IMG/VR virus record: IMGVR_UViG_2529293042_000013
DNA length: 22,815 bases
Reading direction: 5' to 3' (one strand)
Origin: a virus
Lineage: Duplodnaviria; Heunggongvirae; Uroviricota; Caudoviricetes
Shown: positions 9,001 through 12,000 of the stretch, one piece after another
Layout: the number at the start of each line of letters is the position of its first letter
Numbering within the stretch: position 1 is the first letter of the stretch
Program-made: the position numbers

Positions 9001-12000
9001 CTTTTAAGTATGCGCTTGATGGACTCACCAATAAAAAACGCCCGGTGTGCAAGACCGAGCGTTCTGATCAAATACAAATGGAATTTTAACAACATCCAAC
9101 GAGGTAATTATATGCGAAAAACGCAGGAAAATAAACGCGTTAATCACCGAAAAGATGTGCTACGTGACCAGTTTTATCAGGGGGTTAATCCAGCAATAGC
9201 TGTGCCACTGAGAGAAATACTTAACAGGTACAAAACTTCGGAGAAGTCAAAATGAGCATGAATCTTATGGCTAAGGCCATGAATATAAAGGTTGGCAACC
9301 CACTGAGAAAACTGGTTCTGATTAAACTTGCCGATAACGCCAATGATAATGGCGAATGCTGGCCTTCATATCAACATGTCGCTGACCAGTGTGAGGTGAG
9401 CAGATCGACAGTAAAAAGTCACATTAGGGCACTGGAAGAGATGGGGCTTTTGAAAAGGGAATTCAGAAGAAAAGGAGAGCTTAACCAGTCAAACGTTTTT
9501 TATCTGACGCTGGATAATGCACAACAAATCCAACCAGAATCAGGTGGGGCAGGAGCTGCCCGGGGTGGGGCAGGAGCTGCCCTAGGGGGTGGGGCAGGAG
9601 CTGCCCCCAGAACCTATCACTCTTTTGAACCAGTCAATGAACCTAAAAACATTATGTTCGAACATGTCCGAACAGAGTGTGAAAAAACTCCTGACCGTCA
9701 CGAAGAAACCGACAAGGCATTCGAGGAAATATTCTGGTGTGCAGGCATGCGGAAAGCCGGGAAGAAAAACGCAGCTTCAGCATTCAGAACACAGTTCAGG
9801 GAATGGCGTAAAACTACCAGGGGGACGGCAAGCGAGTTTGCCACGATGCTGGCAGAAGACATTGCGTGCAGGCTCGGTAAGCAGTTCGGGTTCGACAGGT
9901 TGTTACCATCGAGCTACCTGAACGGTCAACGCTGGAACGACGAGAAGCCAGAAACTATTCAACCACAATCCAAACCATCATCCGCAATCACCGTATCGAA
10001 AACTGGCTACGTGTTTTTCGACAGGTGAACCATGAAATCCAGAATCAAATCGTTACTTATCGCTGGCTATAACCATGGCTGGCTTAGTTCTGCATTCGTT
10101 GAGTTCTGGTTTAACCGTCTCGATCTGAGGTCAGCGTAATGACTCCAAGTGAACTGAGCGACCTGCTTTGGGCGCAGGTTGACAGGGTGGCTCCGCACCT
10201 GTTGCCAAACGGCAAGAAAGAGGGGCATGAGTGGGTTGCCGGTAACGTCAACGGTGACAAGGGAAACAGCCTTAAGGTCAACATTAGCGGCAAGAAAAAA
10301 TGGGCTGATTTCGCTGAGGGAGACGGCGGTGACATGCTTGATTTGTGGATGGCATGTCGTGGAATTAACCTGCATCAGGCTATGCAGGAAGCGAAAGCAT
10401 TTCTCGGTATCAAGGATGACGATCACCATTTCGATGCCAAACGTGAGAAAAAATTCTCCAGACCTGACCGCAAGAAAATCGCCCGCTACGTTACCAGAAC
10501 AGAATCCCATCTTGAGTACCTGCAATCGCGTGGCATATCGCCAGAAATCGTAAAGCGCTACGAGGTTGTCAGCGGCAAGGTGTGGAATGGAGAGCGGGAA
10601 CTGGATGCTCTGGTGCTTCCGTACAAACGCGATGGTGAGTTGTTGCAGGTCAAGCGAATCAGCACTGAGCGCCCGGACGGGAAGAAAGTCATTATGGCAG
10701 AAGGTGATTGCGAACCTTGTCTGTTCGGATGGCAGGCTCTGGACGCTGGCGTGAGGGCGGTTGTACTTTGCGAAGGCGAAATTGATTGTATGAGCTATGC
10801 GCAATACGGCATCTCGGCGTTATCCGTGCCGTTTGGTGGCGGGAAAGGCGCTAAGCAGCAGTGGATTGAGTTTGAGTATCACAACCTCGACAGGTTTGAG
10901 GAAATATTCATCTCGATGGACGTTGATGATGTTGGTCGTGAAGCCGCAAGGGAAATCGCAAGCCGACTCGGTGAACATCGTTGCCGTCTTGTTACTCTGC
11001 CGTACAAAGACATCAACGAATGCCTGATGAACGGTGTTACCGAGGATGAAATCTGGCAGTACATCGGCACGGCATCCTATTTCGATCCTGAAGAACTCTA
11101 CAGTGCGCGAGAGTTTTACCAGGACACTATCAACGCTTTCTACGGCAAGAAGCAGTATCTGTTTAATCCACCGTGGGAATCTCTGGCAGATAAATTCCAG
11201 TTCCGTGAGGCCGAGTTGACGCTGGTCAATGGTGTGAACGGTCACGGAAAGGCATGCCCACTGAATGAGCCTATTCTTTTAGCTGATGGGACATGGACTA
11301 CTCACGGGGATGTAAAAATTGGCGATCAGGTGGCGTCAGTAGACGGCAATCCGTCAACTGTCACTGGGATATTCCCGCAGGGTGTTAGAGATGTTTACCG
11401 AGTCACATTTGAAGATGGTCGTTATGTTGATTGCGCAGGCGATCACCTATGGGAGGTCACTAGTCGTGGATTCACGAAAGGCGAGAAACGCCGCGTGATT
11501 GACACCTTCGAGCTGAAGCGGTTGAGTGAAACGAAGAGGCACAAAAATGGCGTTAGGATTCCTGAAATAACTGGTGACTTTGGCGACCACTCAGAGCCAT
11601 TAGCATGGGTTATCGGCTCCCTTCTCGGGGATGGTAGTCTTAGCAATGGGAGCGTGAAGTTTTCAAACGTCGAGCCATACATGATCGAGCGTATGAAGGC
11701 TGAACTGCCTGATTACAACTTCTCTGGAGATGGTAAGGACTGGCTGATATCAACGGCGCGTGGTCAGGCAAATCCACTCATGGAGACCCTGCGAGGTTAT
11801 GGACTAATGGGGTGCACAGCAAAAAACAAATTCATCCCTCGTGTGTTTTTTTCCGCAAATAAATCAACGCGTATAGGCATGCTGTGTGGTCTGCTTGAAA
11901 CGGATGGGTATGTCGAGAAGGATGGAACGCTTGTTTTTTCCTCAGCAAGTGAAGAACTGCGCAATGGGGTTGTTCAACTGGTTAACTCACTCGGCGGGTC

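Follow-up and report, generated by a model that had tools for sequence, protein, structure and literature searches.

INTRODUCTION

In phage lambda the replication origin (ori) lies in the middle of gene O, the gene of its own initiator, and the same holds for the Shiga toxin (Stx) phages 933W and P27. The number of iterons, the repeats that the initiator binds, varies among lambda-type relatives, with six in 933W and P27, and the origin and iteron number of lambda-type Stx phages have been studied because of their bearing on toxin output (PMC7466680). The logic of lambda O is modular, such that the N-terminal half of the protein and the origin form one module and the C-terminal half and its partner form another. 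Origins within initiator genes are also described for plasmids. In pSK41, a RepA_N plasmid, Rep boxes in the central part of rep code for a linker that the protein can do without, and a chimeric Rep of pPR9, with a PF13730 N-terminal domain and its own in-gene origin, supports autonomous replication (PMC5703833). Here, we analyze a repeat array and an adjoining conserved element that lie, like the lambda origin, in the middle of an O-like replication initiator gene (9252-10028, plus strand; 258 amino acids [aa]). The gene is carried by the IMG/VR virus record IMGVR_UViG_2529293042_000013, a stretch of 22,815 nucleotides (nt) referred to in full as the window.

The window is 99.9% identical to Stx2a phages of the phi24B/Min27/Stx2a_F403 type. 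Specifically, Stx2a_F451, Stx2a_F403, Min27, phiXuzhou21, and phi24B match it at this identity across 89-94% of its length. It is a Stx2a-converting short-tailed phage or prophage. The replication module is the "Eru5" type of Stx phages, with Stx2a_F403 as representative (Fagerlund et al. 2022, PMC8951638); this representative matches the 1.1-kb initiator region at 100% and the whole window at 99.9%. The Eru5 classification lists genes only, without iterons or a replication origin, and no origin or iterons are described in PMC8951638, PMC8044961, or the phi24B GenBank record. An earlier sequence-only reading of the window had proposed that three repeats inside the initiator gene mark a probable origin of the lambda design. 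Our comparison of related loci makes it probable that the repeats are iterons bound by the N-terminal winged helix of the protein that their own gene encodes, and that together with a 35-bp element and a stretch of low duplex stability (9609-9658) they form the replication origin.

RESULTS

The initiator gene contains an array of dyad repeats

The 17-mer TGGGGCAGGAGCTGCCC occurs in three exact copies, at 9545-9561, 9566-9582, and 9590-9606, with start-to-start spacings of 21 and 24 bp, which reproduces the positions and spacing first proposed. None of 100 dinucleotide-preserving shuffles contained four matches at ≤3 mismatches (mean expected number, 0.02). Tandem Repeats Finder (TRF) placed one array at 9543-9606, with 2.9 copies, and reported no other repeat array over the 22.8-kb window. 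According to the repeat finder, the real unit is 21 nt, GGGGTGGGGCAGGAGCTGCCC, with copies 2 and 3 identical and copy 1 at 90%; the sequence-only reading was thus right about the exact copies and wrong about the unit length. Each unit contains the dyad GGGGCAG-GAG-CTGCCCC. Unit 1, the distal iteron (9545-9561; extended, 9541-9561), and unit 2 (9566-9582; extended, 9562-9582) match TGGGGCAGGAGCTGCCC exactly, and unit 3, the proximal iteron (9590-9607), comprises the full 7+3+7 dyad and abuts the conserved element; all three are on the plus strand. Elsewhere in the window, a fourth near-copy, TGGGGCAGGGGCTGCAT, with three mismatches, lies at 22245-22261 inside an open reading frame (ORF) at 21728-22750, where about 0.02 such copies per window are expected by chance.

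The array is in frame within the initiator ORF and encodes GGAGAARGGAGAALGGGAGAAP (aa 98-119), between the HTH_36 domain (aa 17-67) and the C-terminal part of the initiator. As such, it codes for the Gly/Ala linker that had been proposed between an N-terminal domain resembling a helix-turn-helix (HTH) and the C-terminal domain. The lambda iterons (nt 349-433 of O) occupy the same place between domains at a similar spacing of 20, 24, and 23 bp, in keeping with the proposed lambda-like design. The array DNA is among the most stable 0.03% of the window's duplex stretches. The 46 nt on its 3' side have a GC content of 37%, compared with 47% for the whole window and 26% at the same place in lambda. 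A nearest-neighbor stability scan and the composition profile place the least stable duplex of the initiator region at 9614-9658: this 45-bp stretch (31% GC) has the lowest duplex stability in 9100-10140, ranks in the top 4% of the whole window, and overlaps the 35-bp element. Therefore, the AT-rich stretch that the sequence-only reading placed after the array is poorer in GC than the window, but only modestly AT-rich by comparison with lambda.

Other kinds of feature were also considered for this region. A search of 9400-9800 against Rfam gave only far sub-threshold chance matches, and a known RNA element at the array or the 35-bp element was rejected, as no Rfam family accounts for the region. 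No promoter-like site was found in 9540-9650. The single minus-strand terminator-like hairpin, considered as an internal terminator, proved to be the imperfect palindrome TGTTCGAACATGTCCGAACA at 9655-9674, also a 10-bp tandem, at the start of the C-terminal module. This palindrome folds as a hairpin in the centroid single-strand fold and is kept in close relatives, and at its position Salmonella phage epsilon34 has a different palindrome, TGTCCGAAAGCGTTCGGACG. The window's palindrome is reminiscent of one that lies right of the AT-rich region in the lambda origin.

Conservation of the array is at the level of DNA

To place the array in its family, we used a comparison set of about 190 related loci. 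Searched with the N-terminal 97 aa, IMG/VR yielded 80 loci (65-100% identity), and a search with the pattern of the conserved element gave at least 120 further loci. In every locus of the 80-locus search that is complete through the region, an array lies directly 3' of the N-terminal domain. Three to five units are usual among the relatives. The 136 distinct arrays have one to seven units, with a mode of four to five, and unit-to-unit spacings of 21 bp (n = 133), 22 bp (n = 52), 23 bp (n = 29), and 24 bp (n = 158). The last interval, before the proximal unit, is 24 bp in 112 of 134 arrays, and the proximal unit always abuts AGAACC.

Units with the same motif fall in two or more reading frames in 54 of the 136 arrays. 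The initiator genes of loci L031 and L033, for instance, each carry the window's exact 17-mer in two frames, translated as GAGAAP in one and GQELP in the other. One unit is inverted in 22 of the 136 (e.g., GGGGCAGCTCCTGCCC). The encoded linkers differ wholly between classes (GGAGAAP, PPMPPDGT, GGSAGDSP, GVGPEST, and PSEKSAP), but all classes keep the dyad architecture and the 21-24 bp spacing, and older lineages keep diverged, non-identical units. Since the motif is kept in multiple frames, in inverted units, and with unrelated linkers, selection acts on the array DNA and not on the Gly/Ala peptide.

More distant O-like genes with an HTH_36 domain carry in-gene arrays of their own. SfII (L212, 1517-1680) has the palindromic GTCAGAWTCTGAC at a 15-bp period, followed by two copies of GATCCGTCAG, which loosely resembles GAACCAGTCA. 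Gene gp60 of phiE125 (L213, 1986-2125) has six copies of TAAAGGGTGCAAA, the last four of them 21-22 bp apart.

The predicted recognition helix and the unit sequence vary together

The identity of the gene product as an initiator, as given in the sequence-only reading, is borne out by matches to PHROG "replication initiation protein" families (4617, 270, 8540, and 391) at E values as low as 2e-79 and 5e-69, and the gene is called "O" in phi24B (HM208303). Pfam assigns aa 17-67 to HTH_36 (PF13730) with 52.2 bits against a cut-off of 25 (E = 5e-14). The "O-like" PHROG families match only the N-terminal 150 aa. The initiator has no match to Phage_rep_O (PF04492) at E ≤ 0.01 and no Pfam match to RepA_N (PF06970), and among solved structures a search by sequence found only HTH regulators, at E > 0.2.

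The AlphaFold model of aa 1-97 (9252-9542, plus strand; predicted local distance difference test score, 80.6) contains helices at 3-11, 17-29, 40-47, and 51-63 and strands at 67-70 and 82-85. Residues 1-97 are thus modeled as a winged helix, the presumed reader of the iterons, in which aa 51-63, the third helix of the HTH, would be the recognition helix and aa 67-85 a beta-hairpin wing. Its best fold matches are N-terminal domains of RepA_N proteins (4pql, 4pt7, and 5kbj; E of about 2e-3 and template modeling scores of 0.5-0.57), and these matches are weak, barely ahead of those to MarR/ArsR regulators.

Across 146 unique proteins, the predicted recognition-helix motif predicts the sequence of the proximal unit, and at least seven classes of unit sequence follow the helix. 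The motif [IV][SG]RSTVK.H goes with TGGGGCAGGAGCTGCCCC, CSK[ST]AVR.H with TATGCCACCAGATGGCACC, ISKRSVMNH with TAGTGCAGGAGATTCACCC, and IDRSTVR.H with TGTAGGCCCAGAAAGCACC; likewise, ISRRSVINH is found with TAGTGAAAAATCTGCACCC, ISERSVQNH with TGGTGCAAATGCTGCACCC, and MSRKTAIGH with TAGTGTAAAAATTACACCC. The unit sequence does not follow the C-terminal domain or the helicase partner. In addition, the two arms of the unit change together (GGGCAG/CTGCCC, GTGCAG/CTGCAC, and GTGTAA/TTACAC), as expected of a dimer on a palindrome. This correspondence and the symmetric arms lend indirect support to specific binding of the repeats by the N-terminal domain.

An invariant 35-bp element follows the last unit

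The most conserved part of the locus is one that the sequence-only reading overlooked, a 35-bp element, AGAACCTATCACTCTTTTGAACCAGTCAATGAACC, directly after the last unit (9609-9643, plus strand). It contains the copies GAACCTATCA (9610-9619) and GAACCAGTCA (9627-9636) and a shorter GAACC (9639-9643). All loci share AGAACCAGTCACTCTTTTGAACCAGTCAATGAACC at this place, and the window differs by CTAT for CAGT in the first copy. Among loci found via the N-terminal protein alone, the element is present with at most 4 mismatches in 28 positions in 73 of the 73 processed. Its exact pattern occurs in at least 120 IMG/VR loci and, wherever upstream sequence suffices, directly after this N-terminal family.

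Constraint at synonymous sites was measured in 37 loci that share less than 92% identity in their N-terminal DNA. Thirteen consecutive codons (9603-9641) have no synonymous variants among the 37, whereas synonymous identity between pairs of loci averages 0.46 over 55 control codons of the N-terminal domain, with only one column at ≥0.9. Amino-acid changes do occur inside the element: TTT becomes TCT in 12 of the 37, and AAT becomes AAG, ATT, ATA, or ACT. We therefore disfavor a constraint purely at the peptide level, given that synonymous variation is absent where amino-acid changes are tolerated.

With moderate confidence, we regard the element as a candidate for that part of the origin where the DNA opens or the helicase enters. 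Its sequence stays the same whichever of at least seven iteron-specificity classes, and of at least five types of helicase or loader partner, it accompanies. A stronger version, which we put forward tentatively and do not favor, is that it is a dedicated, sequence-specific site for origin opening or helicase entry, beyond mere low stability, whose reader, acting on single- or double-stranded DNA, would be the first 48 residues of the initiator, near-invariant in this family, or a host factor conserved across the family's host range. If true, this would make the origin a two-part system, with a hypervariable "address" (recognition helix and iterons) and a fixed "engine" (element and invariant N-terminus).

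The element might instead be no more than a conserved recombination joint at which N- and C-terminal modules are exchanged, or encode the peptide motif RT[SY]HSFEPV.EP. Mosaic breakpoints do fall exactly at its right end, where homology to epsilon34 starts and homology to SI5 ends, both near 9644; moreover, the element is always in one reading frame, and its peptide is largely conserved. However, a peptide motif does not explain the lack of synonymous variation, and a recombination joint would require neither internal direct repeats nor a constant position against the proximal iteron. In addition, recombination by itself is generally only weakly selected for. For these reasons, we consider this explanation unlikely for the element, to which alone it applies.

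A further occurrence of the element's repeat, TAACCAGTCA with one mismatch, lies 55 nt upstream of the array at 9482-9491, in the part of the gene that codes for the wing (LNQSN codons). We considered whether the motif flanks the array on both sides and treated this as a coincidence, which is the probable explanation because class B relatives lack it there.

The C-terminal domain assorts with the helicase partner

The C-terminal domain of the initiator (9644-10028, plus strand; module C2) is the presumed recruiter of the partner and always co-occurs with a Toprim primase-helicase. C2, the window's cluster, is accompanied by this protein (partner cluster 3) in 18 of 18 unique proteins. The partner of the DnaT-like module C1 is mostly a lambda P-type loader (PF06992); that of C0 is a DnaC/IstB-like ATPase, a lambda P-type loader, or a Dam/PerC gene; and that of C3 is a DnaB-like helicase in 8 of 18 (where the partner was identified). 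C-terminal domains and downstream genes assort independently of the N-terminal class, with a module junction at about 9644 in both directions. The window's C2 module recurs at about 95% DNA identity in epsilon34, g341c, Sf101, and mEp043 together with other N-terminal modules: these phages combine the window-type C-terminal module and primase-helicase with lambda-type N-terminal domains and iterons.

In the window, the primase-helicase (968 aa; 10139-13045, plus strand) matches Toprim_2 (45.9 bits) and LAGLIDADG_3 (31.8 bits) above the Pfam cut-off, with Hom_end_hint and AAA_25 below it, and PHROG describes it as a DNA primase/helicase. It corresponds to epsilon34 gp52 (626 aa) with a 342-aa insertion in the Walker A loop (GHGK/T); aa 1-371 align at 96% identity and aa 714-968 fall within an 88%-identical stretch. 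The insertion (aa 372-713, nt 11252-12277) is an intein with a LAGLIDADG homing endonuclease. Its boundaries read GHGK/A-C...H-N/TEV, such that it begins with Ala-Cys and ends with His-Asn, with Thr next; Ala at the N-terminus would be unusual in a standard class 1 intein. The protein, a Toprim primase joined to an SF4-type helicase, presumably serves as the replicative helicase that the origin recruits.

The sequence-only reading had thus named the partner correctly, as an intein-containing primase-helicase rather than a lambda P-type loader. The pairing with an O-like initiator, which that reading set apart from the lambda design, is not unusual, since it is already annotated in epsilon34-type phage records. 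Between the two genes lies a 35-aa ORF, MKSRIKSLLIAGYNHGWLSSAFVEFWFNRLDLRSA (10032-10139, plus strand), homologous to epsilon34 gp51. Its stop overlaps the start of the primase-helicase (TAATG), which suggests translational coupling.

The number of units varies among near-identical loci

Unit counts were taken from complete arrays in loci that match the window at ≥95% identity over the N-terminal 88 aa. One unit was found in five loci, two in eight, three in four, four in two, and five and seven in one each. The seven units, all with the same C-to-A change, are those of Stx2_EH2085. The full region is also present in 97 complete E. coli genomes, which lie outside these counts. The exact identity of the window's three copies, together with the range of one to seven, reflects frequent slippage and recent duplication; the exactness of the copies is by itself no evidence of function. 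Unit number driven by slippage may tune initiation.

Public contigs and records often end inside the array, as do L008, L009, L011, L020, L007 (phiKp_30), and many "partial" proteins (P00xx). Because short-read assemblies break in the array, unit numbers in draft genomes are unreliable and probably underestimates. Two loci look like decayed prophages. In L012, unrelated DNA interrupts the array after about 2.5 units (about 1790-1830) and the initiator is truncated at 122 aa, and in L048 the loss of 1 nt in the array shifts the initiator reading frame.

Gene neighborhood in the window

The gene order upstream of the initiator is cI (7639-8345, minus strand), cro (8424-8651), and cII (8790-9089). 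In the window, cI is split into two ORFs, with HTH_3 at 8052-8345 and Peptidase_S24 at 7639-8052. The split, near 8059, results from a T-run that is 1 nt shorter than in phi24B (T6 versus T7), where cI is one coding sequence of 708 nt; the T6 run is either a homopolymer sequencing error or the mark of a frameshifted repressor.

Further from the array, the cIII thermoregulator lies at 3467-3525 and a cluster of C4 antisense RNA and isrK at 14993-15190. The toxin genes stx2AB (18724-19964) are preceded by tRNA-Met, tRNA-Arg, and tRNA-Arg (18382-18633) and followed by the small RNAs STnc100 (20039-20244) and AsxR (20246-20298, minus strand). Downstream of stx2, the stretch 20582-21795 contains two overlapping ORFs and an ALIL frameshift pseudoknot (20863-20979) and resembles an IS3-family element, which probably accounts for the 6% of the window that is not covered by F403, F451, and Min27.

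DISCUSSION

An origin model and its alternatives

Our findings suggest that the origin of phi24B, Min27, and F403 (Eru5), for which the literature searched holds no annotation or description, lies at 9545-9660. In the model that we consider probable, derepression would lead to transcription from pR and thereby to synthesis of the initiator. Initiator dimers would then bind the dyad units to form an O-some-like complex, with the units on one face of the helix because they are about two helical turns apart, and strain from this complex would open the adjoining, less stable element. The C-terminal domain would recruit the phage's own Toprim primase-helicase after the intein splices out. A lambda P-type loader would not be needed, nor, probably, would host DnaB and DnaG. 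We infer the binding, unwinding, helicase recruitment, and origin activity in this scheme from what is observed at the locus, that is, the repeats and their position, the dyad, conservation at the DNA level, the match between helix and unit, the assortment of modules, and the synonymous constraint on the element.

Several observations weigh against this model. DnaA boxes are absent from 9000-10200 and are about as numerous in the window as expected by chance. Over the same 46 nt, the AT-rich stretch is weaker than that of lambda. Full-text literature searches (phi24B/Eru with iterons; the unit and element sequences; strain EH2085) returned nothing. Because the helix-coding sequence and the units are neighbors and inherited together, physical linkage contributes to their association and confounds the co-variation. 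Some apparently viable phages have the variant CTGACC, which weakens the dyad. Among phages isolated as virions, the number of units ranges from two in SI5, through three in phi24B and Min27, to at least six in phiKp_30. Finally, the loci with one unit include the prophage Stx2_16002, so an array of several units is not strictly required, given the five near-identical loci with a single one, unless those prophages are defective. A lone proximal unit may be enough, or the prophages that have only one may be impaired.

Some of these observations would fit a second explanation, namely that the units bind the initiator for autoregulation, by roadblock or attenuation of its own transcript, or for the pairing of copies, while replication starts elsewhere, e.g., at a site recognized by the primase-helicase. 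An initiator bound within its own gene could hinder transcription from pR, and plasmid initiators that bind iterons commonly autoregulate and handcuff; arrays of a single unit and the weak AT-rich stretch are also more easily accommodated. We nevertheless judge this explanation improbable. The lambda-type iterons of epsilon34 at the equivalent position favor an origin, the adjoining element is constrained as DNA and of low stability, and TRF reported no second array in the window. Moreover, autoregulation and origin function are not mutually exclusive.

The notion that the array is only a slippage-prone tandem repeat encoding a flexible Gly/Ala linker, with no function as DNA and the origin elsewhere or undefined, draws on the exactness of the three copies, the one to seven units in near-identical relatives (as in a simple contingency repeat), the low-complexity peptide, and the many assemblies that break inside the array, yet it is very improbable, because the motif is kept across frames and when inverted, the dyad and spacing stay while linkers differ wholly, the unit sequence tracks the predicted recognition helix, and older lineages maintain diverged units.

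Significance

Replication of an Stx prophage after induction amplifies the stx2 genes and thereby affects toxin output. The one to seven units in near-identical phages provide a natural series for asking whether iteron number tunes replication and the yield of Stx2. The initiator family is also a source of many natural pairings between a recognition helix and a palindromic site, and the invariant neighboring element could show how origin opening becomes uncoupled from the choice of helicase.

Comparison with known systems

The locus resembles the origins of lambda, 933W, and P27 in several respects. All have three to six dyad repeats, 20-24 bp apart, that also encode the linker between domains; all have a less stable stretch on the promoter-distal side, in the window much less AT-rich than in lambda; and in all, the N-terminal half of the initiator reads the origin and the C-terminal half is specific to the partner, which for the window is a prediction. 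Unlike lambda O, the window's initiator belongs to HTH_36 and not to Phage_rep_O. The unit is G+C-rich in the window (GGGGCAGGAGCTGCCCC), compared with ATCCCTCAAAACGAGGGA in lambda, and the flank is not only richer in GC than that of lambda but also conserved in sequence, with GAACCAGTCA repeats. The partner in lambda is P together with host DnaB, whereas in the window it is a primase-helicase.

A close counterpart on the C-terminal side is gp50-gp51-gp52 of epsilon34, which has the same C-terminal domain, 35-aa ORF, and primase-helicase, at about 95% DNA identity from 9644 onward. Four iterons of the lambda type, which the epsilon34 record marks as a putative origin, occupy the same position in the gene as the window's array, with about 50 bp between the last of them and the start of the shared sequence. 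The N-terminal domain, iterons, and AT-rich stretch of epsilon34 are of the lambda type, in contrast to those of the window, and its primase-helicase has no intein. ES18 is of the same type as epsilon34 gp50-gp52, including the pairing of an O-like initiator with a primase-helicase.

The RepA_N plasmids share with the window a winged-helix N-terminal domain and boxes located centrally in their own gene; in the plasmids, this domain binds the boxes and the C-terminal domain contacts the replication machinery. They differ in being Gram-positive plasmids with copy control by antisense RNA, and they have no sequence match to the window's initiator, only the weak similarity of fold. Altogether, comparative evidence supports well that the window contains a probable, previously unannotated origin of the lambda design in Eru5-type Stx2a phages, a likeness of design and not of descent.

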